Assembly: GCA_012966015.1 (NCBI GenBank)
Contig: DTRI01000023.1
Coordinates: forward strand, 1 to 44,602
Reading direction: 5' to 3'
Source of the DNA: Flavobacteriales bacterium
GTDB taxonomy: Bacteria > Bacteroidota > Bacteroidia > NORP154
DNA length: 44,602 nucleotides
Positions 7,137-43,200 of the stretch are shown piece after piece; within the stretch, counting starts at the first letter, position 1; each line of letters opens with the position of its first letter. Under the pieces are notes generated by a model. That model searched no databases and was not told the origin of the DNA. It saw nothing but the letters and a program-made list of their open reading frames with translations. Both the position numbers and the translations under genes were made by a program.

Positions 7137-7282
7137 CTTTTCTGGTTTGATAAAATAATCTGTCTGATGGTAATTATTGCATTTCTAATCTGGAATAATA
7201 GCCTTCCGACACAGACAATTTTCGGAAAATTATGCAGAAATTCCTAATTTAGCAATGTGTTCACATTAGAACAAAGGGTATA

Positions 7283-11908: not shown

Positions 11909-12894
11909 TGAGATTGAAGAAACACGTAATTGTTGTTTTTTCGGTAGTGCTCATTGCGAATGCACAGGGGCAGGATGTGCATTTTTCTCAGTATTATGCT
12001 TCTCCAATTTTTATGAATCCGGGTACTACGGGTTCATTTGAAGGTAAAATGAGGGCTGCGATCAATTATCGCAATCAGTGGTTAACCGTTGGTAAGCCCT
12101 ACTCCACTTACTCTGCATCTTACGAAATTGCATTGCTTAAGAAAAAGCAAAGCACTAACTACTTAGGTATTGGACTTAATTTTCTGCAAGACAAGGCCGG
12201 CCTGGCGGCATTTAAAAGAACGGAGATTAATCTCGCACTCGCCTATAATGTTCAATTGAATGAAGCCAATAACGTAGCCTTAGGAGTGCAGGGGGGATAT
12301 CATTTGCGCAGTGTTGATCAGAGTGAGTTGACGTGGGACAGTCAATATAACGGAAGCCAATACATAGAAGGATCGGAATCTTACGAAGACATAAAGCCCA
12401 CCTTTGGCAATGTTGATGTGGCAGCTGGGTTGCTCTGGCGCTATGTACTGGGAAAGCAAGGGGATATAAATGTTGGTTTTGGAGCTGCACATCTAACGCG
12501 GCCGAAACAGCAATTTGCGGGAACGAGTTTAGATAAATTGCCTATGAAATTCACCATTCATGGAGAGGGCCGGTTTACCAAAAGGATGAGCGATTTGGCC
12601 TACTATCCCAACTTCCTGGTAGCACTGCAGGGACCGAATCGTGAAATCAATGCTGGAATCATGTTTAGATATATGATGAAAGAGAGCTCCAAGTACACCT
12701 CTTTTGTAAGGGGTAATTCCGTTCACTTTGGCGCCAACTATCGACTGGGGGATGCCGTGATCATAATTTTAGCACTTGAACTCGCTGACTGGAAAATCGG
12801 ATTGAGCTACGATATAACTGTCTCTAAGTTCACTACCGCAACCAGCAGCGTTGGGGGTTTCGAGATTACCCTGGTTTACATGAAAGTCGACTAG
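11905..12894 (+). CDS. PorP/SprF-family type IX secretion system membrane protein
   Basis: A signal peptide is followed by the family-typical QDVHFSQYYASPIFMNPGTTG start and a beta-barrel-like alternating pattern. Its ATG overlaps the stop of the type-B-CTD gene (ATGA), the canonical cargo/SprF pairing. Confidence 0.85.
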   Translation: MMRLKKHVIVVFSVVLIANAQGQDVHFSQYYASPIFMNPGTTGSFEGKMRAAINYRNQWLTVGKPYSTYSASYEIALLKKKQSTNYLGIGLNFLQDKAGLAAFKRTEINLALAYNVQLNEANNVALGVQGGYHLRSVDQSELTWDSQYNGSQYIEGSESYEDIKPTFGNVDVAAGLLWRYVLGKQGDINVGFGAAHLTRPKQQFAGTSLDKLPMKFTIHGEGRFTKRMSDLAYYPNFLVALQGPNREINAGIMFRYMMKESSKYTSFVRGNSVHFGANYRLGDAVIIILALELADWKIGLSYDITVSKFTTATSSVGGFEITLVYMKVD

Positions 12895-21689: not shown

Positions 21690-23495
21690 ATGCATTTAGC
21701 AGCAATCGATTGGGCGATTATAGCAGTTTTCCTGCTGATATCACTATATATTGGATTAAAATATCGAGATCAAGCGGGGAAAAATCTGACGGCATTTTTT
21801 CTGGGAGGAAGGAACTTGCCCTGGTACATTGCCGGAATCTCCATGGTGGCAACAACCTTCGCCGCAGATACGCCACTGTGGGTTACCGAGAAAATTGCAC
21901 AGCATGGAATCTCCGGAAATTGGATGTGGTGGAACATGCTTATAGGTGGAATGTTAACAACATTCTTCTTCTCAAGGCTTTGGCGACGGGCCAATATTCT
22001 TACGGAGCTAGAATTTATCGAATTGCGATACAGCGGTAAACCTGCGAGGTTCTTGCGGGGGTTCAAATCTATATATCTGGGCGTATTCCTGAACGCAGTT
22101 GTAATTGGATGGGTAAACTCAGCCATGGTGAAAATTCTGGAAGTCTTTTTTGAAATTGATTTTAACGAAGCGCTGATGTGTGTTGGTGTTTTGATGATCC
22201 TGGTGGCCTTTTACAGTAGTTTATCTGGCTTAATGGGTGTTGTTATTACTGATGCCATTCAATTTGTTATGGCAATGTTAGGATGCATTGTCCTGGCTGT
22301 TATTGTTCTTAATTCTGATGACATTGGGGGCATGGACGGCTTGAAATCAAAATTGGCAGGTCAGGAATGGAGGCTGGACTTCTTTCCTAAAATTACCAGC
22401 GACACCGGTATTGGAGAAGCCGCTTCAATTTTCAGTTTGTCCATAGGAGCTTTCCTGTCTTACGTTGTCATACAGTGGTGGGCGAGTTGGTACCCTGGTG
22501 CGGAACCGGGTGGAGGAGGTTATGTTGCACAGAGAATGATGAGTGCCAAAAATGAAAAACACGCCATCTACGCGACATTGTTTTTTCAAATCGCCCACTA
22601 TTGTCTTCGGCCCTGGCCCTGGATCATTGTTGGGCTGTGCGCCTTTGTATTGTACCCAGATTTGCCAATGAACGAATCTGGAAAAGGTTTTGTGCTGGTA
22701 ATGCGTGATTATCTTCCCGCCGGATTAAAAGGAATGCTATTGGTGGCGTTTCTCGGTGCTTATATGAGCACTATATCTACGCAATTGAACTGGGGAGCCA
22801 GCTACCTTACCAATGATTTGTACAGGAGATTTATCAAACCGGAATCTGCGTTTTCTGATGAAGGATTAGCACAAAAGCACTATATCAGAGCAGCGAAATT
22901 ATTCACCGTAGGCATTATGTTGTTCGCGTTCTATGCAACCACTCAAATAACGTCTATTGATGCGGCTGCCAGATTTCTCATAGACTGCGGGGCTGGGCTG
23001 GGAATGGTGTTGATACTCAGGTGGTACTGGTGGCGCATAAATGCCTGGAGCGAAATAGCGGCAACAATAGCGCCGTTCTTCGCCTACTCCTTCTGCAAAT
23101 TCTGGTTAGAGGAGCATCTGGGCAGTGACTTTGTATTGAACAACGGGACATTATTCGTAACAGTAGGATTTACCACGTTGGTATGGGTCATTGTTACCTT
23201 TCTAACCCCGCCAACCGCTGAATCCACGTTATCCAAGTTCTATAATCTGGTTAAACCACTGGGGGCTTGGTCACAATTCCGAAATGCAGATGAAAGCTCT
23301 CCAGATGAAGGCAAAATCATGTGGCTCGTGTTTAGCTGGATCTCGGCAATAATTATGACCTATTCAACCCTGTTTTTAACTGGAAAGTTAATCCTTCAAG
23401 AATGGGATGATTCAATAGCTTGGGGCGTTGTCGCCACAGCATCATTTTTGTGCTTCAAAATGATCGTTAAAAAATCGAAGATTTTAGACGATTAA
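21690..23495 (+). CDS. Sodium:solute symporter (SSF) family transporter
   Basis: This is a 601-aa polytopic protein. The N-terminal FFLGGRNLPWYIAGISMVATTFAADTPL is the characteristic SSF TM1-2 signature. Confidence 0.85.
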   Translation: MHLAAIDWAIIAVFLLISLYIGLKYRDQAGKNLTAFFLGGRNLPWYIAGISMVATTFAADTPLWVTEKIAQHGISGNWMWWNMLIGGMLTTFFFSRLWRRANILTELEFIELRYSGKPARFLRGFKSIYLGVFLNAVVIGWVNSAMVKILEVFFEIDFNEALMCVGVLMILVAFYSSLSGLMGVVITDAIQFVMAMLGCIVLAVIVLNSDDIGGMDGLKSKLAGQEWRLDFFPKITSDTGIGEAASIFSLSIGAFLSYVVIQWWASWYPGAEPGGGGYVAQRMMSAKNEKHAIYATLFFQIAHYCLRPWPWIIVGLCAFVLYPDLPMNESGKGFVLVMRDYLPAGLKGMLLVAFLGAYMSTISTQLNWGASYLTNDLYRRFIKPESAFSDEGLAQKHYIRAAKLFTVGIMLFAFYATTQITSIDAAARFLIDCGAGLGMVLILRWYWWRINAWSEIAATIAPFFAYSFCKFWLEEHLGSDFVLNNGTLFVTVGFTTLVWVIVTFLTPPTAESTLSKFYNLVKPLGAWSQFRNADESSPDEGKIMWLVFSWISAIIMTYSTLFLTGKLILQEWDDSIAWGVVATASFLCFKMIVKKSKILDD

Positions 23496-23578: not shown

Positions 23579-24481
23579 ATGAGATTAACTATGGATTCAA
23601 AGAATTTAAAACCATTTTTCATCGCATTATTGGCATCCTTATTTATGTTGGGTTGCGAAGGTGGAGAAGAACTGAAAGACACCGTCGATGAAATAGAAAT
23701 TGAAGATAGTGGCACCAATATAGTGGAGCTAGGTGGGGTTGTCTTTTGTATACCCTCTCCAGTCCAAACAGCAATTTTGGTGAAGGATGTAGGTGCCGCC
23801 TACGATGGCTCGCTGCTCAACTCTCCTGATAATCGCAATAGTTATTCGACTAATTTTCTTAAGGCCCTAAACCTTGGGATATATGGGGCAGATTTGGGGT
23901 ACTCTACAATCTATGAGCAACCACAGGATGGTATCAGATATCTGAAGACCATTCGAAACCTGGCAGACGATATTGGAGTGGCATCCGCATTTGGACCTGA
24001 GATCATGAAGAGGATTAACCAAAACATTGGCGATCAGGATTCTCTTCTCTCCATGGTTGGAGCTTGTTACAGATCACTAAACTCATTTCTACAGGAGAAT
24101 GACCGAAGCGATGTATGTGCCCTGGTGCTTACCGGGACCTGGGTTGAAAGCACCTATTTTGTTACAAAGATATCTGGCGTTTTTGAAAGTCAGGAGTTAA
24201 CGAATAGGATTGCAGAACAAAAAGGCACATTGGAAAACCTCATTAAACTTATTGAACCGTACTATAACGATCCGCAATTCACTGAGTTACTAGACGATCT
24301 GTACGATATTTCAGATGTTTTTGACCATGTACAGGTATCTTATGAATACGTTAAACCATCAGTAGATGAGGCGAAAAAGCTGACCACAATAAATTCCTTT
24401 TCTAAGGTGACTATATCAGAAGATCAAATTCAGTTAATTTCAGACAAAATCGCGAATCTCCGTGATTTAATAACGGGATAA
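23579..24481 (+). CDS. Hypothetical lipoprotein, predicted all-helical, no family recognised
   Basis: A lipobox-like signal is present (LLASLFMLGC-EGG). An acidic linker is followed by about 250 aa with helical periodicity. The start could be 23579 or the ATG at 23591. Confidence 0.65.
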   Translation: MRLTMDSKNLKPFFIALLASLFMLGCEGGEELKDTVDEIEIEDSGTNIVELGGVVFCIPSPVQTAILVKDVGAAYDGSLLNSPDNRNSYSTNFLKALNLGIYGADLGYSTIYEQPQDGIRYLKTIRNLADDIGVASAFGPEIMKRINQNIGDQDSLLSMVGACYRSLNSFLQENDRSDVCALVLTGTWVESTYFVTKISGVFESQELTNRIAEQKGTLENLIKLIEPYYNDPQFTELLDDLYDISDVFDHVQVSYEYVKPSVDEAKKLTTINSFSKVTISEDQIQLISDKIANLRDLITG

Positions 24482-24519
24482 AACAAGATTCAACTCTCTA
24501 ATTTGTAAAAAACCAGACA

Positions 24520-24939
24520 ATGAGTAACTACGTTAAAATATTTTTGATCACATGCGCATCATTGTTGGCCTTTGACGGATACGGTCAGTGTGACTCAACC
24601 GTAAAGCGCTGTGCGGACCATTTAACTACAAAATTTATTTCTGATGGACAACAGTATCGTTCGTTGCTGATTGGCGATGAAGTAGCAGAGTTTCACGCAA
24701 CATTTTATGGAAACAGCACTTATAGAATTTGTGGATGCACGGGTAATTCTGATGGAGATTTGATATTTTCACTTTACGATGAGCAAGGGAATTTACTCTT
24801 TACGAATAACGATTACAGAAATGCACCGTTTTGGGATTTTGAATTTAAAGGGACTGTTGACTTAACTATCGAGGCTCGGTTGGAATCTATGAACCAGTCA
24901 TCAGGTTGTGCTGTAATGCTAATAGGGTTTAAGCGCTAA
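24520..24939 (+). CDS. Small secreted beta-sandwich protein (PPC/pre-peptidase-like motif), hypothetical
   Basis: A signal peptide is present (IFLITCASLLAFDGYGQ). GDLIFSLYDEQGNLLFTNND resembles the DLDLYLYD-x-x-G core of PPC-type sandwiches. The gene starts 38 nt after the lipoprotein gene. Confidence 0.6.
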   Translation: MSNYVKIFLITCASLLAFDGYGQCDSTVKRCADHLTTKFISDGQQYRSLLIGDEVAEFHATFYGNSTYRICGCTGNSDGDLIFSLYDEQGNLLFTNNDYRNAPFWDFEFKGTVDLTIEARLESMNQSSGCAVMLIGFKR

Positions 24940-25050
24940 TAATTTCTACCTTTTAGTAAGTAGGGCACAAACCGAGAGGCATTATAACTATTTTGTTTTA
25001 ATGTCTTTTGTATTTTTTGTAACAAGTTAATCTACGTTAATACCTGATCA

Positions 25051-28000
25051 GTGAGTGAAAGAATACTAAAAGCCTTAATGCAGCTTTTTGCCATTATCTC
25101 CGAAGTAGATATTGATGGATTATCTACTGACAGACGGTATATAGTAGAGCTATTCTTAAAACAACAACTGAATCAGGAGTTGGTCGATGAATACCTAAAG
25201 GTATTTGACGAGTTTGTAGAGAGTCAAACGAAAAAGGGGGCCAGCGCAAAGAAAAAGAAACGGACTTCTGTAAACTCTGTTAAGATTCTGAGGATTTGTA
25301 CTCAGATAAACGAAGAGTTGGCACAACCGCAAAAAGTTGTTGTTCTGCTCAGGCAAATCGAATTTATTTTCTCTTCCGGAAATCCATCGGAACAGGAAAT
25401 AGAATTTGTTACTACCATAGCTGAAACATTCAATATAAGCCAGGAGGAGTATAACCGCATTTATTCTTTTGTGAAAAACAATCAGGAAGAAGTTCCTGAA
25501 TCCTCCAAAATTCTCATTATAAACGACAAGGAGACCAACAGCATTCCTGAGATAAAGCACATTGCCATAGAGAATCTTACAGGTCAGCTACGTTTTTTAC
25601 TGATTTCCAGTATAAATATGTACTTACTGAGATATTATGGATCTGGGGAATACTACTTGAACGGACAAATTATCAATCGTGATACTGTATATGTTGTCAA
25701 CCCAGGTTCTTCGTTGAGAAGCTCTAAAATTCAGCCTATATACTATAGTGACATTGTAAGCAGCTTTATGAGCAGCAAGACAGCTGATAAGATTGTTTAT
25801 GAAGTAAAGGAGTTAGAATTCAAGTTTCCAGCGGGAAACATAGGAATTCAATCGATGAATCTCAAGGAGGAATCCGGAAGAATGATCGCTATTATGGGAG
25901 GATCAGGCGCTGGCAAATCAACTTTATTAAACGTGTTGAATGGTGTCGAAGTTCCTTCAAGTGGTCAGGTTCTCATCAATGGCATTGATATCCATAAAGA
26001 CAAAGAACAGGCCGAGGGCATTATCGGTTTTGTTCCTCAAGACGACCTGCTTATGGATGACCTTACGGTATTCCAGAATCTATACTATGCGGCTAAACTG
26101 TGCTTTGGAAATTTTTCTGACGATAAGATTTCAGAAATGTGTGTGAATTTGCTGGGAGATATTGGATTGCAAGAGGCAAAGGATTTAAAAGTGGGCAGTC
26201 CGCTTGAAAAAGTGATTAGCGGTGGTCAAAGAAAAAGATTGAACATAGCCCTTGAGCTTATCAGAGAACCTTCTGTACTATTTCTCGATGAACCAACATC
26301 AGGATTATCTTCTAGAGATTCTGAAAACATCATGGACCTTTTAAAGGAACTTGCTCTAAAAGGCAAATTGATATATGTAGTAATACACCAGCCTTCATCT
26401 GACATTTTCAAGATGTTTGACAAGCTGATAATCCTGGATGTTGGTGGTTATATCATTTACAATGGCAACCCGATAGATGCGGTTGTTTACTTTAAAAAGC
26501 TTGTGCAGCACATCAATCCCGATGAAAGCGAATGTATACAGTGTGGTAACGTAAATCCCGAACAGATTTTCAATATTATCGAATCTAAGATCGTAGACGA
26601 ATATGGAAATCTAACGAGAACCAGAAAAACAACTCCTAATCAATGGAATGACGCTTACATGGAGAAAATTGAGCCAGTGGTTCAAAATCAACAAATAGAC
26701 ACATCCAGTAAAATACCGAAGAGCACCTTTAAAATCCCTAATATCTTCAAGCAGGTTAGAGTATTTATTACAAGAGATGTTCTTTCCAAGTTGATGAACA
26801 AACAATACATGGGCATCAGTATGTTGGAAGCACCCGCGTTGGGCTTGCTGCTGGCTTATTTCATGAAATATTACAACACCGATATATCGAACAAAGTGGG
26901 ATACATTTTTAGAGAAAATGGGAACATTCCTTTGTTTATGTTCATGTTGGTATTGATTATGTTGTTCATTGGATTAACGGTAGCCGCGGAAGAAATCATC
27001 AAAGACCGCAAAATATTAAAGCGTGAGGCATTTTTAAACCTGAGCAGGGGAGGTTATCTTTTTTCTAAGATCGTGATTATGTTTGGAATTTCAGCAATCC
27101 AGTCAATTACGTTGATATTATTAGGAAATGCCATACTGGAGATTAAAGGAATGACACTGGACTACTGGTTAATCCTGTTCTCCTTGTCCTGTTTTGCAAA
27201 TATGCTGGGCCTGAATATCTCTTCGGCGTTTAACTCAGCCGTTACCATTTATATTCTCATCCCTTTCATTGTTGTTCCTATGTTATTATTCAGCGGTGTA
27301 ATGGTGAAATTTGACAAACTAAACCCATCTATTATTGTTCACAATAGCGTGCCAATGATTGGTGAAGTTATGGTTACCAGATGGGCATATGAGGCTATGG
27401 TGGTAAATCAGTTTAAGACCAATAATTTTGAAAAACACTTCTATGGATACGACAAGAAAAAGAGCATTTCAGATTTCAAGAAAAACTACTGGATTCCGGA
27501 TCTAAAGAGCAAGGTGGATTACTGTATTATCAACATCAGTAAGAAGGAAAGTGAGGATCAAGTGAGATACGCCCTGGATTTGGTAAAAAATGAGCTTAAT
27601 CTGGGTGTCTTGCCATTTAAGGAAATCAGCGCTATCTTCCCAATCACGCTCATCGACAGTATCAATTATGATTCGTTTGATGTAGATTATGGAAAGCGAC
27701 TGAAAACTTACTTAGAAAAGCTGCATAGGTATTACATTAAAAGGTATAATAACATCACTAAAAGTAAGGATAAGCTAGTGGCACAAATGAACAGTACTGA
27801 AGCAAAGCGAACGAAATTCATACGAATCAAGAATATGTATGACAATGAGGCACTGCGGGATTTAGCCGTTAATAAAAATGAAATTAACAGGATTAAGGAG
27901 ATTGATGGTGAGCTTGTACAGCAAGCTGATCCGATTTACATGAATCCTGTGAATACGGGTAACATAAGAACTCATTTCTTTGCTCCCGAAAAGAGATTAT

Positions 28001-28167
28001 TCGGTAAACTATACAGTACTTTCTGGATTAATATCCTGGTTATCTGGATTATGTCTTTTGGCCTAATGGTCAGTCTTTACTTCAACTTGTTCAGGAAGTT
28101 TCTGGAATATCCTGGAGAGCTGATAGGAAAGATTCAAAAGTTGTTCGTAAGGAAGGAAACAGCATAG
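25051..28167 (+). CDS. Atypical ABCG(White)-type ABC transporter, NBD-TMD fusion (1038 aa), with a TerB-like helical N-terminus, a beta-rich linker domain and an insert of about 200 aa between TM5 and TM6
   Basis: NBD motifs: Walker A GGSGAGKST (aa 283-291), Q-loop, signature ISGGQRKR, Walker B VLFLDEPTSGLS, and the IHQPS H-loop that is a hallmark of ABCG. There are five TM helices at aa about 590-755, then RWAYEAMVVNQF (an ABCG re-entrant-like segment), a charged region at aa about 790-988, and a final TM FWINILVIWIMSFGLMVSLYF. The two helical repeats in aa 1-140 (ALMQLFAIISEVD..., VVLLRQIEFIFSSGNPSEQEIEFVTTIAETFNIS) look TerB-like. The start codon is GTG. Confidence 0.85.
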   Translation: MSERILKALMQLFAIISEVDIDGLSTDRRYIVELFLKQQLNQELVDEYLKVFDEFVESQTKKGASAKKKKRTSVNSVKILRICTQINEELAQPQKVVVLLRQIEFIFSSGNPSEQEIEFVTTIAETFNISQEEYNRIYSFVKNNQEEVPESSKILIINDKETNSIPEIKHIAIENLTGQLRFLLISSINMYLLRYYGSGEYYLNGQIINRDTVYVVNPGSSLRSSKIQPIYYSDIVSSFMSSKTADKIVYEVKELEFKFPAGNIGIQSMNLKEESGRMIAIMGGSGAGKSTLLNVLNGVEVPSSGQVLINGIDIHKDKEQAEGIIGFVPQDDLLMDDLTVFQNLYYAAKLCFGNFSDDKISEMCVNLLGDIGLQEAKDLKVGSPLEKVISGGQRKRLNIALELIREPSVLFLDEPTSGLSSRDSENIMDLLKELALKGKLIYVVIHQPSSDIFKMFDKLIILDVGGYIIYNGNPIDAVVYFKKLVQHINPDESECIQCGNVNPEQIFNIIESKIVDEYGNLTRTRKTTPNQWNDAYMEKIEPVVQNQQIDTSSKIPKSTFKIPNIFKQVRVFITRDVLSKLMNKQYMGISMLEAPALGLLLAYFMKYYNTDISNKVGYIFRENGNIPLFMFMLVLIMLFIGLTVAAEEIIKDRKILKREAFLNLSRGGYLFSKIVIMFGISAIQSITLILLGNAILEIKGMTLDYWLILFSLSCFANMLGLNISSAFNSAVTIYILIPFIVVPMLLFSGVMVKFDKLNPSIIVHNSVPMIGEVMVTRWAYEAMVVNQFKTNNFEKHFYGYDKKKSISDFKKNYWIPDLKSKVDYCIINISKKESEDQVRYALDLVKNELNLGVLPFKEISAIFPITLIDSINYDSFDVDYGKRLKTYLEKLHRYYIKRYNNITKSKDKLVAQMNSTEAKRTKFIRIKNMYDNEALRDLAVNKNEINRIKEIDGELVQQADPIYMNPVNTGNIRTHFFAPEKRLFGKLYSTFWINILVIWIMSFGLMVSLYFNLFRKFLEYPGELIGKIQKLFVRKETA

Positions 28168-28259
28168 CATAATTAAGCCTTCTTATCTTAATTAGATTAT
28201 ATTACTCATCCGTTATTGTATTGAACAGAGGTAATGTGTCCGCAACGGGAATAAACAAC

Positions 28260-28297
28260 AAACCGCCCCTCACATATTCTTATGTGAGGGGCGGTTT
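28260..28297. terminator. Bidirectional intrinsic terminator shared by the ABC gene (+) and the siaC-like gene (-)
   Basis: A perfect 15-bp stem AAACCGCCCCTCACA / TGTGAGGGGCGGTTT has an 8-nt loop. T-rich tracts follow it on both strands (GTTTAAT on +; TGTTGTTTAT on -). Confidence 0.85.
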
Positions 28298-28333
28298 GTT
28301 TAATGCTAGTCTGAACTGAAGAAGGAAGGAAGT

Positions 28334-28720
28334 TTATTCCTCTTCTATCGCTATTTTCTCAAAAGGTACAGTTACGATCGCCTCATAGTCGCCTCCAGCT
28401 TCGAGCATGTCCTCGTCATCCTCTTCATAATACCAATGTATTACCATCTGCGTTCCACCCTTCTTATGGATACCTTCAAGTGCCTTAAATACATCCAGGA
28501 TACACTTTGAAGAACTTGTATTAAAATACTCCAACTGCACCTCGACGTTAGTCTTCGGCTGAGGACTATTGCCGTACTCATCCAACCACTCTAAAAGCTC
28601 CTTGTAAAATTCCAGTGAGTTTTCTGGAATAGATCTTCCACGAATTTCGATATGCCCTTTGTCAGGATCAAAATTAATCAAGGGGGTTTTAGGTGTTGGT
28701 TCAATACTTATTGTATCCAT
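28334..28720 (-). CDS. siaC: SiaC-family (DUF1987) regulatory phosphoprotein
   Basis: The protein is 128 aa. The DUF1987 layout is present: TPLINFDPDKGHIEIRGRSIPEN, FYKELLEWL, and the motif LEYFNTSSSK, whose Thr is residue 68 (codon 28517-28519). This matches the phospho-acceptor position of P. aeruginosa SiaC. The tail is acidic. Confidence 0.85.
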   Translation of the reverse strand: MDTISIEPTPKTPLINFDPDKGHIEIRGRSIPENSLEFYKELLEWLDEYGNSPQPKTNVEVQLEYFNTSSSKCILDVFKALEGIHKKGGTQMVIHWYYEEDDEDMLEAGGDYEAIVTVPFEKIAIEEE

Positions 28721-28764
28721 ATCTATGATTTTAATTTATTCGGTAAATATATTATTAAATAGTA

Positions 28765-29322
28765 CTAATTAATATGTGAAATTTTAATGTCCAAGCTAAA
28801 AAATGAATACTCATCATCTATCAGTTTAAAATTATATCCTAATTTTTGGCCAGTCCTTCGCGCAATATCTACCAAGCCAAGTCCGCCGCCACCTTTTTCA
28901 GAGAAAGAATCATTATTGAGAATTTCCTTATAGAGTGCTTTTAACTCGTCCTTATCCATCTTATTAATTCTATCCATTTTCTCGGTTAGAGGCGGAATAT
29001 TTTCAGTGATAATATAATTACCAGTCATTATGTTATACATCTCTTCATCCTTGCCAATCATAAATATAGCTGTCCTGGCGCGTTTTGAGCGATCATCAAC
29101 TGGTGCCACTTCATCAACGTGATGATACAAGTTCTGAAGACATTCAACCAGCACATTGTATACCCTCTTTTTTGTTTTAGATTTTTCCTCGAAATTATCG
29201 AGTTTAGCTTCCATTATCTGAAGTATAGAAGTGAGTAAATCAGATGTGATCTCACCCTTAAAGGAGAGCATGATATTGCTGCGTTCCATTTTATCGTAGA
29301 ACTCGAATATGTCTAAGTCCAT
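28765..29322 (-). CDS. siaB: SiaB-family protein kinase (GHKL/anti-sigma-kinase fold)
   Basis: The protein is 185 aa. It has an N-box-like VECLQNLYHH and a G-box EKGGGGLGLVDIARRTG. The gene lies 44 nt upstream of the DUF1987 gene on the same strand, in the same B-then-C order as siaABCD. Confidence 0.8.
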   Translation of the reverse strand: MDLDIFEFYDKMERSNIMLSFKGEITSDLLTSILQIMEAKLDNFEEKSKTKKRVYNVLVECLQNLYHHVDEVAPVDDRSKRARTAIFMIGKDEEMYNIMTGNYIITENIPPLTEKMDRINKMDKDELKALYKEILNNDSFSEKGGGGLGLVDIARRTGQKLGYNFKLIDDEYSFFSLDIKISHIN

Positions 29323-33390: not shown

Positions 33391-33796
33391 AAATTGACTC
33401 AAATTTTAACTAAAGGATAAGGTTTTGAAAAATTTACGTTTTGGGTTTTTCAATATTCATTCAGCTATGGACAATGTGAAGCATCTTAATCTTACTGAAA
33501 ATTATCGTGGAGAAAAATTAAATGAACTAAAGGCAAAAAAAGATTTTCTGATCAAGCAAAAGGACGACTTTCCCAGTACTTGCAAGCCTGCACGTCCATC
33601 TACCCATTATATTCCCAATAAACGAAGTAATACTTATAAAATATTAATTGGCAATAACTCTATTCTTTGAACATTTTTTTGGATATTCTAATTTTTTAAA
33701 AAACACCCTTCTATTTTTATTGTTGTATAAAAATAATATGTACCTTGTCGTTCTTAACGTTAATTAAGATTGAACGATAAAACAATACACGTCACC

Positions 33797-34012
33797 ATGA
33801 AAATTACGAAAAAATTTATTCTAATGGTCTCGGCTATAATGGCAATTACATTGATGATTGTCGGCACAGTCCAATTAAATGCAAGATCCAAGGTTGACCT
33901 ACATCATGGATCTAAAGGTATTCTGATAAAAGTTCCTATCATCACACTTCGAGCACATGCACGGCACGGTGATTATGTGCATGCACCTTCATTTTGTAAT
34001 TGCGATTTTTAA
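33797..34012 (+). CDS. Small (71 aa) exported or membrane-anchored His/Cys-rich protein, hypothetical
   Basis: The N-terminus MKITKKFILMVSAIMAITLMIVGTVQLNA is a signal peptide or anchor. The mature part DLHHGSKG...RAHARHGDYVHAPSFCNCDF has 6 His and a C-terminal CxC. A strong intrinsic terminator follows. Confidence 0.5.
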   Translation: MKITKKFILMVSAIMAITLMIVGTVQLNARSKVDLHHGSKGILIKVPIITLRAHARHGDYVHAPSFCNCDF

Positions 34013-34049
34013 CCTTGTACAGGTTAAATCAATAAATAATTATAAAGCA

Positions 34050-34080
34050 GCCGGTGTAGAAATCTACACTGGCTTTTTTA
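34050..34080 (+). terminator. Rho-independent terminator after the small ORF
   Basis: A 10-bp stem GCCGGTGTAG / CTACACTGGC (one G-U pair) has loop AAAT and is followed by TTTTTTA. Confidence 0.85.
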
Positions 34081-34661
34081 TTGACTAAAGTTTGTGTTGC
34101 AAATAAAGCATGTATCTAAAACACGCTACCTACGGCTAGCTTAATTATATCCTTTCCCCACTACCTGTTTATTGAATGTATCGTTTGATACTAAATCTAA
34201 TTTAATTTATTTGCAGTATTAGGTATTGTGAATACTGGTTAATACAAAGAACAAAAGAGGTGGGAGAGATAATGTGCCGCCGATGAGGTAAGAACTCATT
34301 TTGCCCTGAGCCCAGCTCTAACTTCGTCTATGATTATTGTGGTTTTATCTAAAAATATAGATTCCTGATCCATATTTACGGATCTTTATGTAAGATCAAG
34401 GCTATCCCGGGAAATTAATGATTTACGACTTTGCACAGCTGGATTATGTAAGTATTCCAATCTGGGCAAGACGAAATAAGTTCGAAATTTTTCTGAAGTG
34501 ACTCCATTATATAGTAAATTAGGGGTAATGAGAATTTTGGAATCAACTTAGCTAGTGTAACATTTCAGGCAAATGAGCGTAAATAAAATGAGGCAACCAC
34601 CAAGCGTCCAGGGATGGTATTCACATCTGTCTACTGATCTGGTGACAACAAAAAATGATTA

Positions 34662-35669: not shown

Positions 35670-38600
35670 ATGATAAGTTCGGCTAAAAATAATGGGTTTC
35701 TCTCATTGGCTATGCTGCTGGTCTGTGCCACTATTGGATTAGCTCAACCCACCATCACAGGAATTTCTACTACTACTATTTCCGCTGGAACTAAATCCGT
35801 ATTAAATATTACAGGAACTAACTTCGGTACTGGAGGCCCAGGTGCTTCGAAGTATGTAGAGTTTAAAAATGCAGATGACGGAGGTACCACCTGGATACAG
35901 CCAATTCCTTCTGAATATGTTTCATGGAACAATACCAGTATTCAGGTACAGGTTCCCTCTGGCGCAGGAACCGGAAGCGGAGCTGGAAGCGTCAGGGTAA
36001 CAAATGGAACAAGCAATACCTGGACCACCTCCATATTGACAGTAACATACAATTACTTAAATGTAACTTCTGGTAATGTAACCTATGAACCAGATCATAT
36101 TGATGACGACGGCAGTGGTGGTTATACCTGGCAGATGTTTACCGACTTTGATGCTGCTGCTCTTGCCAAGGCATCTTTCCAGAGAGCCTTAGAAACATGG
36201 AGATGCAACACTTATGTCAATTGGGATATAGGCAGCGTAACTACAGTTGATGTCATAGCGAGCGACGGAATTAATGTAGTTAGGATGGATAACGGAAGTG
36301 AGCTTCCTGCTGGCGTATTAGGACGCTGCACGAGCCGTTGGACGGCTTGTAACAGCGGAGGCTGGGAATGGTGGGTGTATGAACTGGATATTGCTTTTGA
36401 TGACGGCACTAATTGGCAATATGGCCCTGCAGGACCAGGTGGTGCCCAATACGATTTTGAATCTGTAGCAGTGCATGAATTGGGGCATGGACACCAGCTA
36501 GGACATGTTATTGCATCTGGAGGTGATGTAATGCATTACGCGATAGCTAATGGCGTAAGTCAGCGCGCTCTTACGGCCAATAACATTACAGGTGGTAACG
36601 ATGTAATGACTAACAGCACTGCAGCGAACAGTTGTCCAGAGGACCCTATGACTTTACTGACTGCGGGAAATTGCGCCTTGGCTTGTGTAGGCAATGAGCC
36701 GGGAAACGATGCTATCTGCAGTGTGACCGCATTGGTACTCGCAGTTTGCGCGACTGGACAAACCAATACTTGTGCTACAGATCAGGGATATGCATTTGGC
36801 TGTGGTACTGGAATAAAATCGGTCTGGTATACTGCTTCTGTTACTGGTGGCAATGACCAGCTTGATATCACATTTGCCAACACAACTTTTGGAACGGACA
36901 TAGAAGTCTACTTATACAATGGCGCTTGTGGCGGACCTGTAGCAATTAGTTCTGTATGTGGCCCTGCATCTAACACATTCTCCTTTACCGGTGTATCAGC
37001 AGGTGGATCGCCTTATTTAATAGGCGTGGGGACAGGATCTACTGGCGTTGGCGATTTCGATATTTGCGTTAATCAAGCGACTACCCCGTGTGGTGGTGGC
37101 CCACCAACCAACGATGCTATATGTAGCGCAACTGTATTACCTAACGGTGGGTGCTTCCCAATCCTTGCGGAGAACAATACTTGCGCATTAGCTGATAACA
37201 CTTTTGGATGTGCAACTTCAGATAAAACACTCTGGTACAGCGTAACCATGGCAGGTGCCAATGACGACTTAGTCATTACTTTTGCCAATTCAACATTGGG
37301 TGGAGATGTTCATGTGGCCATATATAGTGGTGTTTGTGGATCTCCTACCGGAGTATACTCTTCTTGCGGTCCAGCGGCCGGCAATTTTTGGTTTTATCCG
37401 CTTACACCGTTAAGCACATACTTAGTTAGCGTATCTACGGATGCGGCTGACGTTGGCCTTTACGATATCTGCGGTACGCAATCTGTTAGCCCGTGCACCG
37501 GAAAAGAACCTGGCAATGACGAGTGTTCTGCCCCAACAACTCTTCCTGTGGATAATACTTGTGTAACTAACCAGACCAATCAATGTTCAACTGAGGATTA
37601 TACCTTTGGATGCTCAACGGACAGATATACAGTATGGTATCAGTTTACATTGGGCGCTTCGGCCAGTGTGCTCGATGTAACATTTCCGGTGAACACATTT
37701 GGTGATACTGTTGAAGTAGCGGTATGGACGAATGTTTGTCCAACTCCGGTTGGAGTTACGGCTTACTGTGCAGCACCAAATGGCACATTTAAATTTACGG
37801 GTTTAACGCCCAGCAGTACATATCTGCTAAGTGTGGCTACGGCAATAGCAGATACGGGCAGTTTCAGTATTTGCGCTCAGGAGGCTGTCGATTGTGGCGT
37901 AAGTCAGCCAGCGATCGACTCGATCTGCGGAGCACTCACGGTGCCAACAAACGTTTGGTGCTTAACTGGCCAGTCCAATCTCTGCGCCACGTCTGAAGGT
38001 TTTGGATCCTATTGCGTCGATTCTTTGGGAGGAGCTACCGTATGGTTTGATTTCTCAATCACCGTACCAAGCAACAGAGTTCAGTTTACGCTACAGAATA
38101 CCACCTGGTCTTCCTCGACGCAAGTGCAAATGCTGATTGCCCAGCTTACTGCTGGATGCCCCGGAGCGATATCTGTAAGCATTCTGTATGGGGTATGTGG
38201 TGCTCCTACCGATACGTTTGATTTTCCCACCAACCTCACGCCGGGCAATACCTATTACCTAATGGTTCAGACCGACACATTGGAAACAGGAGATTTTGAT
38301 ATTTGCGGCCAGGAATACGAGGTACCCCCTGCGACCCTTACAGGACCTGAACAAGATTGTGACGGTGCCATCCCAATTTGTGGGCCCACCTACGTTGAGA
38401 TCAATGCATATTCGGGATTCGGGAATGTGCAGGAGATTACGAATATTTGCTTCGGTTGCCCAAGCTTCAATGGTGGCGAAACAAACTCTGTATGGTACAC
38501 TTGGACGGTGCAAACACCGGGTACAATGTTCTTTGAAATAGTTACTACAGATCTTTATGACTGGGCATTGTATGATATAACTACAATTGGATGCGCTGGA

Positions 38601-40178
38601 ATCCCAACAGTTTCCAGTGGAGATGCGGAAATCCCCAGGTGCGCATTTTCTAATACTGTGGGCAATACGGGAGCCAGCGGACCAGCCGTTTCAAATCCTA
38701 CCCCGACAATAGGTGCATGTCAATTTGACCCTCCTAATGTAGATGGAATTAATGTAGTTGCCGGGCAAGTATTTGCCCTGGAAGTAGACAACTGGTTTGG
38801 AAACAATAACGGTTATATAATAAATATTTGGGGTACTGCGCAGGTTTGGGACAATGTAGCACCAGATATGACCTCTGTTACCTCTTGCGCCACAACTGTC
38901 ATTACTTTAATTTTTGATGAACAGATAAAATGTGATAGCATTACAGCTGGAGAATTTATATTGACCAATATCACAACAGGTACCGACTATTCTTCAGCCA
39001 TTACCGGCATAGCAGGTGTAGGCTGTCCTGGTGGCGGGGGTGGCTACACAAATCAGGTTGATGTAACGCATAGCGGTATATTTCCAGCGGGTACGTATAC
39101 ATTGGGAATTAACTTGGGTGTTATAGAAGACCAGTGTGGAAACAAAGCGATTGTGGGCGATACAATAATGTTTACTTATTTACTACCTCCTATCTTCACC
39201 GCAAGTGCCGATACTATATGTACAGCTGGAGATTCCGTAAGGCTTACTGCTGATATTGGACAAGACATCTATCAAGGTTCTCCTCCTGCGGGATTAACCT
39301 ATACACTAAATCCAGGCGCTGTTGTAAATACTACGGGCATATTTGATGTAAATCCATTAGTTACTACAGTTTATACTATAGAGGTTTCCTTTGGAGGATG
39401 CACTAAATCGGCAAGCGTAACAGTGGAAATTGTGAATAACGTTGTAGCCAGTATTTCCCCCGTAGACCCAACGGTTTGCAGCACACCCACTGCATTGACT
39501 GCATCGGCAACTGTAAACGGAGGCCCTTGTGCTTCATGCATATTTCAATGGGACGATGGTAGTTCACAAACTACATCTGTGGCAACTGGATTGGGAGTTG
39601 GCACTTATTCAGTTACGGTCACTACACCTCAGGGGTGTGAAGCTAACAATGTACCTTCTTCTACCGTATCAATTGCGGGAGGTGGACCAGGGGCGAGTTG
39701 TGACGTTATATATGTATCAGTACTCGGTGGAGGTGATGGTCTGACAAAAAACACTCCTACTGACATTAAAACCGCATTGATTGATGCGGCTTGTACGAAT
39801 ACTGTGATCAAATGTCAGGTGGGTACTTACCCTTTTAATGAATACCTCGATGTAAAAAGTTTTGTAACGATTGAAGGAGGATATAGTTCAGGTGGAAGCC
39901 CGTTTACTACCAAAACCAGTGATCTAACGGGAGGGGGAAATAGCACAACCTTCGTACGTCAAGCGACTACTCCGGATGGAGGAGCCGGGTTAATTTTTTC
40001 CATGTTCAAAGTTAATGGAGGCGAGGTAGATTTTAGATTCCAGGATATTCGAATTGAGATGCCTACAACACATACAGCAGGAACAGAATACTCTAATTAT
40101 GGAATTAATTTAGGTGCTGGTTGTTCGGGATATAGTATTATAAGATGTTATATAGATGCGGGCACGGGAGCTAACTAG
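35670..40178 (+). CDS. Giant (1502 aa) secreted protein: IPT/TIG domain, matrixin-like metzincin protease, 4 Cys-rich modules of about 125 aa, further Ig-like/SprB-like domains and the beginning of a beta-helix; no T9SS C-terminal domain
   Basis: A signal peptide is present, followed by PTITGISTTTISAGTKSVLNITGTNFG (IPT). HELGHGHQLGH (aa 269-279) is HExxHxxxxxH, with a Met-turn GGDVMHY. The repeated modules each end in GDFDIC, LYDIC or SFSIC. The ORF ends ...IIRCYIDAGTGAN* without a PNP-type or CHU_C tail. Confidence 0.85.
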   Translation: MISSAKNNGFLSLAMLLVCATIGLAQPTITGISTTTISAGTKSVLNITGTNFGTGGPGASKYVEFKNADDGGTTWIQPIPSEYVSWNNTSIQVQVPSGAGTGSGAGSVRVTNGTSNTWTTSILTVTYNYLNVTSGNVTYEPDHIDDDGSGGYTWQMFTDFDAAALAKASFQRALETWRCNTYVNWDIGSVTTVDVIASDGINVVRMDNGSELPAGVLGRCTSRWTACNSGGWEWWVYELDIAFDDGTNWQYGPAGPGGAQYDFESVAVHELGHGHQLGHVIASGGDVMHYAIANGVSQRALTANNITGGNDVMTNSTAANSCPEDPMTLLTAGNCALACVGNEPGNDAICSVTALVLAVCATGQTNTCATDQGYAFGCGTGIKSVWYTASVTGGNDQLDITFANTTFGTDIEVYLYNGACGGPVAISSVCGPASNTFSFTGVSAGGSPYLIGVGTGSTGVGDFDICVNQATTPCGGGPPTNDAICSATVLPNGGCFPILAENNTCALADNTFGCATSDKTLWYSVTMAGANDDLVITFANSTLGGDVHVAIYSGVCGSPTGVYSSCGPAAGNFWFYPLTPLSTYLVSVSTDAADVGLYDICGTQSVSPCTGKEPGNDECSAPTTLPVDNTCVTNQTNQCSTEDYTFGCSTDRYTVWYQFTLGASASVLDVTFPVNTFGDTVEVAVWTNVCPTPVGVTAYCAAPNGTFKFTGLTPSSTYLLSVATAIADTGSFSICAQEAVDCGVSQPAIDSICGALTVPTNVWCLTGQSNLCATSEGFGSYCVDSLGGATVWFDFSITVPSNRVQFTLQNTTWSSSTQVQMLIAQLTAGCPGAISVSILYGVCGAPTDTFDFPTNLTPGNTYYLMVQTDTLETGDFDICGQEYEVPPATLTGPEQDCDGAIPICGPTYVEINAYSGFGNVQEITNICFGCPSFNGGETNSVWYTWTVQTPGTMFFEIVTTDLYDWALYDITTIGCAGIPTVSSGDAEIPRCAFSNTVGNTGASGPAVSNPTPTIGACQFDPPNVDGINVVAGQVFALEVDNWFGNNNGYIINIWGTAQVWDNVAPDMTSVTSCATTVITLIFDEQIKCDSITAGEFILTNITTGTDYSSAITGIAGVGCPGGGGGYTNQVDVTHSGIFPAGTYTLGINLGVIEDQCGNKAIVGDTIMFTYLLPPIFTASADTICTAGDSVRLTADIGQDIYQGSPPAGLTYTLNPGAVVNTTGIFDVNPLVTTVYTIEVSFGGCTKSASVTVEIVNNVVASISPVDPTVCSTPTALTASATVNGGPCASCIFQWDDGSSQTTSVATGLGVGTYSVTVTTPQGCEANNVPSSTVSIAGGGPGASCDVIYVSVLGGGDGLTKNTPTDIKTALIDAACTNTVIKCQVGTYPFNEYLDVKSFVTIEGGYSSGGSPFTTKTSDLTGGGNSTTFVRQATTPDGGAGLIFSMFKVNGGEVDFRFQDIRIEMPTTHTAGTEYSNYGINLGAGCSGYSIIRCYIDAGTGAN
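36684..38309 (+). repeat. Four tandem Cys-rich modules of about 125 aa (PPC-like) inside the metzincin gene; two related modules occur at the N-terminus of the next gene
   Basis: Each unit follows the pattern (E)PGND-x-C-x-x-(A/T)-x-x-L ... C-x-T ... FGC ... WY-x-(F/V/A) ... C(G/P)xP ... C(G/A)P ... Y(L)(L/I/M)-x-V ... DIC. Approximate unit boundaries in the translation are aa 339-468, 474-601, 609-736 and 741-880. Confidence 0.75.
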
Positions 40179-40212
40179 ATTTGATATGATTAATAAGAAT
40201 ATACATATACGA

Positions 40213-43200
40213 ATGAAAAGAATAATCTCATACATTATTCTCATTGTGTGTATGCATGGAGGGGTCTCGACGCTATACGGAGCCTCGAGCAATACATGTG
40301 GAACTGCTCCTTTGTTGGTCATGTGCGAAACGAATACAATGAATAAGCCAAATTCTTATAACAATACACTAAATCCTGCCGGATGTAACACGTCAAACCA
40401 GGATGATGCATGGGCAAGATTTGTTGCGACTGGAACAACCACCGGAGTTGCATATTATACAACAAATGACGCAGTTTTGCACATCATGTCGGGGACTTGT
40501 GGGTCACAAGCCTCTGTTGCTTGTGCTGATAATTGGTTAGGCGGTGGTGAAATTCTAACTTTTGCCTCTACAATTGGAGTTACCTATTACGTTTACGTTG
40601 AAAGATGGAATTCCAATGTGCAAATGAGTGGACAAATCAGTGTTTGGCCTATTGCAACTAATGATATTTGTGCTAGTGCAACACCTATCACGGTTAATGG
40701 CGCTTGTATTTCAGATGCCTGTCAGGGGGAAAATGGTGAGGGAGCAGTTTCATGTGGCGGTGCCAATAATTCCAATGCAGCCTCAACGTGGTATAGCTTC
40801 GTCGCTCCAGCAAATGGAAGTGTTGACATTACGGCAACATTAAACCTGTATGGGTATTATGCGCCAATCGTTGTGTATGCCTCGTGTGGCGGGGCTGAAA
40901 TTCAATGTGACTATACTGGAGGGGATCCTTTGGTGGCAAGTGTATCTGGCTTGACTTGTGGAGACACGTACTACGTCGATTTAGCCGTGCCGGTAACTGT
41001 GGCGTATCCGGCAACACCCTGGGAGATTGTCTCTAATTATCAGTTATGCATCACGACAACTGGAGGATTGGGTTGCATCCCTGGCGGGGACGCTTATGGA
41101 GTATATTCAACTAGCGATCCTGTTGTCGGTACGATTACAGATTGTGAAATATATGCGGTTGGGGGTACAGGTGGAAATGGATTTGAAGTAGCAAAAGGCG
41201 CTGGGCCGACGGATGATGGCTATTCCAGTGTCGCAGTAAGCAATTATGCAGTTATCACCGCCGAGAATATTTCCTGTTTGAACTCTGATATGGATTTTAC
41301 AACCGCTGATGGCTCTCCTGTTTGGCCGGCCGGAGCACTTGGCACAAATGCAACAATTGCTGATCCTCCTGATGTGGGTACCGTGAATAATAATCAATAT
41401 TCGGCTACACTGGGTAGAAGAGATATTACGTTTGTAGGTGATGAAGCTTCTGTTTCGATGCCTTCTCAGACGTATTCATCGACCGTTGGTACGGTACTTC
41501 CGAATGGATTTTGTGGAGTTGATGACATTATTGTAGTGGCGGGTTATACGGGGACAGTTGCGACGGCTAACATAACCGTTACGGTAAATACCACCCATAC
41601 CCAAGCAAATGATCTTCTAGTTTTTCTTCAAGCTTCAAATGGAGATATTTTAAACCTGATGTGGCAGACTGGATGGACTGGAGCTGGTTTAACAAATACA
41701 ATCTTTTCAGATGCCGGAGCAACAAAATTACTTGGTCAAAATAATTCACCCTGGACGGCAACTTACCAGGTTGAAGATTTGGGTGATCAACCGGGTTGTG
41801 GTTACACCAGAAACAGAGCAACATTTGGCGCAATTGGTGGAGGAGCTCTTAATCCAAATGGAAATTGGACATTACATGTTTTGGATGCCGTCTTTGGAGG
41901 AAACACCGGTACTTTTGATGATTGGTCTATAACTTTCCCTGCATATACGGTATCTGGCCCAACCAATCAAAGTCATGTTTATACTGGTTTTGTTAACATA
42001 CAAATGGCCAAGCCTTCGCCTGGAGATGTATTAGGTGTTGACAATGTTTGCCCTGGCACCTACAATTTTGCCAGTAGCGAGGCGGGAACTGCAGGTTATA
42101 GTTATCAATGGTCTGTCCTACCTGTAGCAGGTGTCACAATTGCAACGCCAACGGATTCTGCAACAGATATAACCTTTACAAACAGTGTTGATCATACGGT
42201 CAGTCTGGCTATCACGTCAGAATGTTGTGGGCCTTTGGTGCAAATTGACTCGGTGGTCACCATTTTGCCGCTTCCTGCTGTTGATCCGGGGACCGATATA
42301 TCTCTATGCGCCGGCGCGACGGATACTCTGGTGGTTACAACACCGACAGGGGGTTACAGTTATGGGTGGTATGATGCGGCTACGGGCGGAACCTACCTTG
42401 GAGGCGGAACCAGCTATATTGTTAACCCCGTATTGCTTGGGGTTACAACGTATTACCTTGAAACTATTAGCAATACCGGATGTGTAAGTGCCACTCGGGA
42501 CGCAGTTACAATTACGGGAACTGATACACCACCCAGTATAACCGGAAATAACTTCCAGGCATGTAACCCGGGTAATATTACCGTTTGCGTTAATGCCCCG
42601 ATATCCGGGGCCACCTATAGCTGGTGGACTTTAGCTGCAGGTGGGGTGTTGTTGCAATCCAGTACTGCATTTTGTTATGATGTGAATGTGGCCACATCTC
42701 CAGCAACACAGTCGGTGTGGGTTGAAGTTACAGAATCAGGTTGCAATGTAAGTACAACACGAACTGAAGGTATCGCTGAAACTACAGGTGGAGGGTCTAC
42801 TAATACCACATGGAGTGGTGCTGTTGACACTGATTGGTTCGTGGATGGCAACTGGTCGGATTGTGTGCCAACTCCCTTAATTGATGCCATATTCCCTTCA
42901 GGTGCTCTAACGAATGAATGTACGATAGATATAATCAATGACGCGCCAGCTGAATGCAGGAGTATTTCTATTGATGCCGCCCGAACCTTGTCATTTAACG
43001 GCGCACTTACAACCTTGAACGTCTATGGTAATTGGACCAATAATGGAAGCGTTAGTGCCACAACAGGTATTATAGGATTTCTAGGAACTACAGCCCAAAC
43101 TATTGGGGGAACTTCTTCCACCTCATTCTATAACCTGAAGATTGATAACTCTACAGCATTAAGTGCGGTTACTTTGTTATTAAATACTACGGTTACCAAT

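Follow-up and report, generated by a model that had tools for sequence, protein, structure and literature searches.

An ABCG-type exporter operon and a SiaB/SiaC partner switch on converging strands of a Flavobacteriales genome: separate modules or a coupled system?

A contig of 44,602 nucleotides from a Flavobacteriales bacterium (GenBank assembly GCA_012966015.1, contig DTRI01000023.1; the whole stretch is called the window below) carries five genes that form two convergent units. On the plus strand lie the genes for a lipoprotein-like protein, a secreted 139-residue protein (p139) and an ATP-binding cassette (ABC) exporter of the ABCG type; facing them on the minus strand is a siaB-siaC pair for a threonine-phosphorylation partner switch. 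An earlier interpretation, made from the DNA letters and their translations (the sequence-only reading), had proposed that the phosphorylation state of the SiaC protein controls the exporter through its N-terminal domains. After domain searches, structure prediction and a comparison with related loci, we hold with a little more confidence than doubt that the exporter operon and the SiaB/SiaC switch are two separate modules, adjacent through inherited gene order.

If the two units are separate, each would work as follows. The first would comprise the lipoprotein, the secreted beta-sandwich protein p139 and the exporter, possibly together with a symporter encoded upstream, and the N-terminal TerB/FHA-like module of the exporter would regulate its ATPase, by analogy with the FHA-bearing exporter Rv1747. 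The second would be the kinase/substrate core of a switch of the SiaA/B/C type: by homology to Pseudomonas aeruginosa, SiaB would phosphorylate SiaC at Thr68, a PP2C phosphatase would remove the phosphate, and free, unphosphorylated SiaC would bind and modulate a target protein, as it binds and activates the cyclase SiaD in P. aeruginosa (PMC8457831). Because the phosphatase gene is absent from the window, it must be encoded elsewhere, and the SiaC target would be encoded elsewhere too.

The absence of direct coupling is what we infer from the way the two units are distributed. Eighty related exporter loci (L001-L080, with flanks of up to 10 kb) were searched by tblastn with the window proteins, by all-against-all clustering of open reading frames (ORFs) and with SiaB and SiaC hidden Markov models (HMMs) on six-frame translations; 68 of them, with at least 1.2 kb of downstream sequence, are informative. 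A convergent and directly adjacent siaC-siaB pair is found in 14 of the 68 (two further cases lie on short contigs), and 5 more have the pair within 10 kb with inserted genes. The co-localisation on which the sequence-only reading was built thus recurs beyond this genome. Some 49 of the 68 loci (~72%) have no SiaB or SiaC within 10 kb, and the six-frame HMM searches uncovered no divergent copies in these seemingly negative loci, bar a weak SiaB-like match in L053.

In a neighbour-joining tree of the exporters, adjacency prevails in one clade, mostly labelled Bacteroidales: 13 of its members have sequence that can be read downstream of the exporter, and in 12 of these siaC is the neighbour. Across a larger clade the arrangement is scattered: the genes are adjacent in the window together with L001 and L041, in L030 and in L060, and nearby in L042 and in L004, L005, L018 and L055. 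With cases on either side of the midpoint root and a patchy spread through the larger clade, adjacency is probably the ancestral arrangement, repeatedly lost; its recurrence across the root also allows chance to be rejected as the explanation.

A housekeeping gene in the same neighbourhood serves as a control. An RlmL-like rRNA methyltransferase gene (THUMP/UPF0020) occurs near the exporter in 8 of 15 loci on one side of the root and 8 of 66 on the other, almost the same distribution as that of siaB (10 of 15 and 10 of 66), and six of the eight clade-B loci with RlmL also keep siaBC. Several lineages retain a whole block, which reads Zip-MT, then (SpoIIE) SiaB SiaC, then, after intervening genes, exporter, p139 and lipoprotein, then RlmL, PFK and PriA; in L008 the exporter still adjoins MT-Zip and siaBC is gone. 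The Bacteroidales clade is syntenic over further unrelated genes, namely MATE, RlmL, f21 (a small ATPase-like gene), f26 (a membrane protein), an S41 peptidase and a GMP-synthase-like gene, the labels of f21, f26 and the last being assigned by eye. Because RlmL, pfk, priA and MT-Zip co-vary with the retention of siaBC, the siaBC-exporter linkage is indistinguishable from an ancestral gene order in slow decay. When the co-localisation was checked against that of unrelated neighbours, it did not rise above them, the RlmL-like control being nearly equal.

The picture from the switch side is similar. Eleven reverse look-ups were made with SiaC orthologues 65-70% identical to that of the window, using 10-kb flanks. 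Six of the nine informative look-ups (L081, L084, L085, L086, L088 and L089) have no exporter within 10 kb, and in two lineages (L082/083/087 and L090/091) an exporter is nearby with one or three genes between; L092 is uninformative for the exporter, as its contig ends. Several additional SiaC matches lie on contigs equal in length to those of exporter matches, so the real share of SiaC loci that have an exporter somewhere on their contig could be closer to a half. A 266-residue gene between exporter and siaC in L082/083/087, considered as a possible link between the modules, was discarded, being unrelated to the lipoprotein family f29 that accompanies siaB elsewhere (see below).

The two operons do lie tail-to-tail as the sequence-only reading described, with every coordinate confirmed and a stop-to-stop gap of 166 bp (28168-28333). 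The gap holds a hairpin that folds at -37.2 and -36.8 kcal/mol on the two strands (z -9.0 and -8.2), and 0 of 200 shuffles fold as well; the shared terminator that had been placed at 28260-28297 with a 15-bp stem is present as a hairpin, with the stem corrected to 20 bp at 28257-28300. Of the 17 adjacent loci, 13 have a spacer of ~40-120 bp between exporter and siaC; it measures 166-189 bp in the window and L041 and reaches 422 bp in L001. Most adjacent loci have a single symmetric hairpin in this spacer, flanked in several by A and T runs. Hairpins in these spacers fit the expectation for two independently terminated units. By arrangement, exporter and siaBC are not co-transcribed, here or in relatives: they converge, with a terminator-like hairpin between them. 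The coordinates of all features are collected in Table 1.

Table 1. Features of the window (positions on the 44,602-nucleotide stretch) with the basis of each assignment
Feature	Position	Strand	Basis and remarks
Lipoprotein-like protein, 300 aa	23579-24481	+	ORF; signal peptide ends in ...LGC lipobox-like motif
Secreted protein, 139 aa (p139)	24520-24939	+	ORF; beta-sandwich, GOLD/PliG/PPC-like jelly-roll fold
ABC protein, 1038 aa, ABCG-type half-transporter	25051-28167	+	ORF, Pfam, NCBIfam
TerB-like helical domain, exporter aa 1-145	25051-25485	+	PF05099, fold match
FHA-like beta-sandwich, exporter aa ~150-240	25498-25770	+	AF2 + Foldseek
Hairpin, 20-bp perfect stem, 4-nt loop	28257-28300	unstranded	Bidirectional terminator candidate between convergent stops
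SiaC-family (DUF1987) protein, 128 aa	28334-28720	-	PF09345; Thr68 codon 28517-28519
SiaB-family kinase (DUF6272), 185 aa	28765-29322	-	NF038262
Tandem SiaB-like protein (2 x DUF6272), 364 aa	1315-2409	-	PF19788
Sodium:solute symporter	21690-23495	+	PF00474 4.6e-31

Domain calls in the window were made with Pfam and NCBIfam, for which the larger ORFs were scanned. The exporter is composed, in order, of the N-terminal module, a nucleotide-binding domain (NBD), an ABC-2 membrane domain and a ~250-residue C-terminal extension that, read from the sequence, ends in an apparently hydrophobic segment. Pfam places TerB at residues 8-137, ABC_tran at 267-417 (3.5e-30) and ABC2_membrane at 568-788 (9e-19); the best NCBIfam subfamily model, the White-type permease TIGR00955, matches at 1e-77, which is under its cutoff. 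The TerB call is close to threshold (24.7-29.9 bits against a PF05099 cutoff of 24.4), is made in 18 of 18 family members (best 2.5e-8) and agrees with a Foldseek fold match of the TerB-like part to PG1108 (PDB 2h5n).

An AlphaFold2 (AF2) model of the N-terminal module, built from an 18-sequence alignment, has a mean predicted local distance difference test score (pLDDT) of 83 and a predicted template modelling score (pTM) of 0.78. It consists of a helical domain (residues 1-145) and a beta-sandwich (residues ~150-240), the latter with pLDDT mostly 85-94 over residues 151-240. The top PDB matches of the sandwich in Foldseek are nearly all FHA domains, including Rad53 FHA1, MEK1, CEP170, EssC, DgcB and KIF1A, at a probability of ~1.0 and E of 0.007-0.05. 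The domain is thus predicted to be FHA-like in fold, and it may bind phosphothreonine. Sequence-based annotation barely detects it, and only structure prediction makes it visible: the Pfam FHA model is seen in 1 of 18 family members (E = 0.055), a profile of the N-terminal module finds no match among PDB sequences even at E <= 10, and Pfam scans of isolated residues 152-259, as well as of residues 765-1038, gave nothing meaningful. When the region is aligned by hhalign with Rad53 FHA1 (reference sequence identical to 1G6G; probability 7%), only structural motifs align (KH170, LNGQ and G-S-S), and this low-probability alignment offers no clear conserved counterparts of Rad53 R70, S85, T106 and N107, which contact the phosphothreonine.

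The suggestion that the exporter carries about 260 extra cytoplasmic residues of a regulatory kind at its N-terminus is therefore upheld, with TerB-like and FHA-like domains predicted there. All exporter orthologues examined have the module, whether siaBC is nearby or not, and the sandwich is always N-terminal to the NBD. At least 8000 relatives of the exporter were scored in a protein search, in which the 120 listed are all full-length at 57-100% identity, and at least 588 matches were confirmed in a genome collection with one genome per species. A profile of the N-terminal 265 residues retrieves 1077 clusters at 50% identity, 296 of them at E <= 1e-30, and the module always stands at the N-terminus of proteins of ~1000-1050 residues or of shorter apparent fragments, in no other architecture. 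No functional work on this exporter family is known to us; no literature search was aimed at it.

The proteins encoded upstream appear to belong with the exporter. For the 300-residue lipoprotein-like protein, Pfam gives a sub-threshold DUF6827 match only. The 139-residue protein has a signal peptide-like N-terminus, an invariant Cys31 and a Cys73 present in at least 90% of sequences, and it has no Pfam or NCBIfam match. Its AF2 model (pLDDT 89.2, pTM 0.76) resembles, by Foldseek, the GOLD domain of TMED1 (6e-5), the lysozyme inhibitor PliG (1.7e-4) and the collagen-binding domain of ColH (1e-3). Collagen-binding domains of collagenases we take to have the PPC fold, and the label 'PPC-like' given by the sequence-only reading is a fair one at the level of the fold. 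Among 81 loci (the window and L001-L080), p139 is present in 56, and an orthologue of the lipoprotein lies directly upstream of p139 and the ABC gene in 55; the lipoprotein-p139-exporter set is a Bacteroidia-wide operon. The sodium:solute symporter gene, which lies 83 bp ahead of the lipoprotein gene on the plus strand, has the same position in 13 loci, including L075 of the Bacteroidales clade, and may be a fourth member.

The switch proteins are clear members of their families and lie at some distance from the characterised equivalogs. SiaC matches PF09345 at 5e-42 over 118 of 120 model positions and aligns to the P. aeruginosa SiaC structures 6KKO and 7E6G at 1.4e-16; against the equivalog model NF038265 it scores 95.5 bits, below the cutoff of 150. 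Its segment FNT68SSSK aligns with the P. aeruginosa phospho-site peptide LNTSSIK and keeps Thr68, which is conserved in all aligned type-1 SiaC orthologues shown. In P. aeruginosa SiaC, Thr68 in LNTSS is the mapped target site of SiaB and SiaA (PMC7647112). SiaB, whose gene precedes siaC on the same strand with a gap of 44 bp, matches DUF6272 at 1e-42 and the SiaB-family kinase model NF038262 at 175 bits (cutoff 85), with only 92 bits against the equivalog model NF038264 (cutoff 225). It keeps a putative N-box (QN) and a Gly-rich lid (SEKGGGGLGL). Type-1 SiaC is 61-67% identical between the two exporter clades, as against 51-54% for the exporter and 43-54% for SiaB.

No PP2C/SpoIIE, GGDEF or Hanks-type kinase (Pkinase) domain was found among the larger window ORFs scanned against Pfam, in agreement with the earlier remark that the switch lacks its canonical output enzyme locally: neither SiaA (PP2C) nor SiaD (GGDEF) is among these ORFs. 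In relatives, a SpoIIE/PP2C gene, or two, stands upstream of siaB on its strand (L004, L005, L018, L041, L055, L085, L086, L090, L091 and L092). The encoded phosphatases are either Reg_prop/Y_Y_Y-SpoIIE proteins (~1100 residues) or shorter SpoIIE proteins (330-480 residues), the shorter ones probably with an N-terminal membrane segment. Judged by their domains, the Reg_prop/Y_Y_Y-SpoIIE proteins are likely to sense the periplasm, and both forms are the likely SiaA-equivalents cognate to siaBC. The window lineage has lost the SiaA-equivalent phosphatase from the position upstream of siaB.

Relatives also encode a second protein in front of siaB, a lipoprotein of ~270 residues whose family (f29) has no Pfam match. 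It is the pair's most regular neighbour on the same strand, and the phosphatases and this lipoprotein accompany siaB-siaC more steadily than the exporter does; in the window it does not occur. Its gene lies directly upstream of siaB in L004, L005, L018, L030, L081, L085 and L086, and by position in L092, and is usually preceded by a gene for a Reg_prop/Y_Y_Y-SpoIIE or a shorter SpoIIE phosphatase. The gene tables of the siaC loci L081-L092 contain no GGDEF gene and no other recurrent candidate output gene, and neither unit is consistently accompanied by a sigma, anti-sigma or DNA-binding gene in the sampled loci.

Further SiaB and SiaC relatives occur both in the window and elsewhere. The protein at 1315-2409 had been described as a tandem SiaB-like protein, and two DUF6272 domains are indeed found in it (PF19788 at 9e-53, in two stretches). 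The first half keeps the lid (SEKGGAGLGL) and the second has SESNNASVGL instead, so that the second half looks, by its sequence, like a pseudokinase domain. The gene is 26 kb from siaBC with no SiaC gene adjoining; its neighbours are tRNA-Ser (1034-1123), tRNA-Asp (483-559) and a protease of the type IX secretion system (T9SS). In loci of the Bacteroidales clade, a second, paralogous siaC(-siaB) copy is found ~3-5 kb beyond the first pair, complete in L048, L049 and L057 and with only siaC detected in L056, L067 and L080. It sits between the S41 peptidase gene and the GMP-synthase-like gene (f15, by eye), with a STAS-domain protein slightly further on. In L084 (10001-11659), a type-1 SiaC gene without siaB is followed by a gene for a Response_reg-HATPase_c_2 fusion, with a second such fusion nearby, which suggests a different kinase partner for SiaC in that lineage.

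Several observations weigh against regarding the exporter and the switch as separate. The gene most often found directly downstream of the exporter is siaC (16-17 loci), followed by a patatin-like gene (8), and siaC is still immediately adjacent where the exporters are only ~52% identical to that of the window. In L021, a divergent solo SiaC-family gene (6796-7173, minus strand) lies 87 bp downstream of the exporter and convergent with it, with no siaB. No other obvious output of the switch appears in any sampled context, and the FHA-like fold of the exporter is found beside a threonine-phosphorylation system. DUF1987 proteins have moreover been proposed to modulate adjacent proteins generally (PMC8457831).

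These points are shared by the gating model, according to which SiaC, depending on the state of Thr68, would bind the TerB/FHA-like module of the exporter and switch its ATPase or transport, the exporter taking the place of SiaD as output. The model is further served by the recurrence of the convergent, adjacent arrangement on either side of the root of the exporter tree, by the conserved Thr68 of SiaC and by two precedents, a phospho-regulated FHA-ABC exporter (Rv1747 with PknF; PMC3138270) and a SiaC that binds the product of an adjacent gene directly (PMC8457831). Around siaBC no other candidate output is seen, and the gene kept beside the exporter in L021 is siaC by itself. In its wider form, SiaB and a periplasm-sensing SpoIIE phosphatase would together set the Thr68 state of SiaC and so control an ABCG-type envelope exporter in Bacteroidia.

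We nevertheless consider contact between SiaC and the exporter unlikely, and the wider scheme doubtful to the same degree. The exporters of the ~72% of loci without siaBC within 10 kb still keep the N-terminal module that SiaC would bind, most sampled siaBC loci are without an exporter, the RlmL control is distributed alike, and the two units are not co-transcribed. The canonical phosphothreonine contacts are unrecognisable in the FHA-like domain, which the Pfam FHA model barely detects. The phospho-site of SiaC, probably at the N-terminus of a helix in a folded domain, is not a typical FHA ligand, and in P. aeruginosa the target-binding form is the unphosphorylated one (PMC8457831). Of the gating model as first proposed, then, the local absence of SiaA and SiaD, the regulatory N-terminus and the recurrent co-localisation all stand; a linkage above that of the control does not.

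Phosphoregulation of the TerB/FHA-like module could also proceed without SiaC. The candidate site is the motif K70-R71-T72-S73 (window 25258-25269), which is invariant. It ends a disordered Lys-rich loop (residues 63-70, pLDDT <50 in the AF2 model) and starts a helix of the TerB-like domain. Another Ser/Thr kinase, or SiaB itself, would phosphorylate this KRTS motif, and the FHA-like domain would read it in cis or in trans. Universal retention of the module, whether or not siaBC is near, speaks for this account, and the invariance of all four residues at the low-confidence loop end and helix N-terminus, together with the FHA-like fold, agrees with it; the FHA domains of Rv1747 likewise bind phosphothreonines of the protein's own linker (PMC8339232, PMC3138270). 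We judge it quite improbable all the same, for no Hanks-type kinase is among the scanned window ORFs, residues that would contact the phosphothreonine are not evident, and the invariance of KRTS may be structural.

An indirect coupling, in which the switch and the exporter operon would answer the same envelope or nutrient signal without contact, for instance through a transcription or sigma-factor pathway that SiaC acts on and that controls the exporter operon, we think very unlikely: the periplasmic Reg_prop/Y_Y_Y sensor domains of siaBC-linked phosphatases in relatives, the envelope proteins encoded by the exporter operon, the loose but recurrent linkage and the classical action of partner switches on sigma factors (PMC7647112) speak for it, and against it are the lack of any consistently linked sigma, anti-sigma or DNA-binding gene in the sampled loci and the same synteny caveat that applies to direct gating.

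Each unit has known systems to which it can be compared. The switch shares with P. aeruginosa SiaABCD (SiaA, a PP2C phosphatase; SiaB, a kinase; SiaC, a DUF1987 protein; SiaD, a diguanylate cyclase) the adjacent same-strand SiaB and SiaC genes, the NTSS motif at Thr68 and, in relatives, a SpoIIE phosphatase of the PP2C type encoded immediately upstream. It differs in that the window is without SiaA and SiaD and no sampled related locus encodes a GGDEF protein; in that its SiaB and SiaC fall below the NCBIfam equivalog cutoffs; and in that the phosphatases of relatives bear Reg_prop/Y_Y_Y sensors, unlike the architecture of SiaA, with the ~270-residue lipoprotein a frequent extra member.

With the STAS-based switches (SpoIIAA/SpoIIAB/SpoIIE, RsbV/RsbW/RsbU and HsbA-HsbD), the unit has in common the logic of a kinase, a phospho-acceptor and a PP2C phosphatase; SiaC has been described as structurally related to STAS (PMC8457831), and the Bacteroidales relatives also encode a STAS protein near their second siaC-siaB pair. 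The acceptor of the unit is a DUF1987 protein rather than a STAS protein, and neither a sigma factor nor a diguanylate cyclase was identified as an output.

The exporter, for its part, is comparable to Rv1747 of Mycobacterium tuberculosis, which is regulated by PknF. In both, an NBD is followed by an ABC-2 transmembrane domain and a protein-phosphorylation system is encoded alongside, and the fold predicted at the cytoplasmic N-terminus of the window exporter is of the FHA type found in Rv1747. The window exporter has one divergent FHA-like domain with unrecognisable phosphothreonine-binding residues in place of two canonical ones, and adds the TerB-like domain and the C-terminal extension of ~250 residues. 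The kinase gene beside it encodes the GHKL/RsbW-like SiaB and is convergent, whereas the kinase of Rv1747 is of the Hanks type and encoded in the same operon; the window operon further has genes for a lipoprotein and a secreted beta-sandwich protein.

Some other features of these loci are worth recording. In Vicingus-like lineages (L006, L007, L010, L016, L023, L027, L031 and L063), siaBC is absent, and a same-strand gene for a membrane-anchored, patatin-like phospholipase of 741 residues lies 3' of the exporter. The close relative L064 lacks, at the corresponding position, the ~500-bp segment that holds the solo SiaC gene of L021. The region of interest in the window has no Rfam or tRNA match, and whole-window scans gave two tRNAs only. 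At 33391-34661, ~1.27 kb contain no ORF of at least 90 residues and no Rfam match; this interval is flanked by a gene for a spermidine-synthase-like membrane protein and by a cluster of large secreted or T9SS-type protein genes. T9SS-related genes, which do not bear on the question of exporter and switch, are found at 2871-5144, 7283-12894 and 35670-44367. They encode an M36-like protease with a Por_Secre_tail, a 1541-residue protein with SprB repeats and CHU_C, followed by PorP/SprF, and two proteins exceeding 1400 residues, of which one carries a T9SS sorting domain. The T9SS cargo, SprB-repeat and PorP/SprF genes of the window fit the labels of the related loci, all of which are Bacteroidota.

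To our knowledge, Pseudomonas is the only genus in which SiaB/SiaC-type switches have been characterised, with a diguanylate cyclase as their output, and our literature searches found no paper on such DUF1987/DUF6272 switches in Bacteroidota. Several results are useful as they stand. The exporter can be re-annotated at the level of its domains, which matters for a large family whose regulatory N-terminus has an FHA-like part barely visible to sequence annotation; likely cognate phosphatases have been identified for the switch; and the locus provides a worked example of a conserved, functional-looking neighbourhood that is matched by a housekeeping control. Each module belongs to a known kind, the one being a SiaB/SiaC switch and the other an ABC-2 exporter with a predicted FHA-like domain, and it is their proposed coupling that would be new. 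If the switch does gate the pump, partner switches would gain a new kind of output, and the role of the exporter would become easier to approach.

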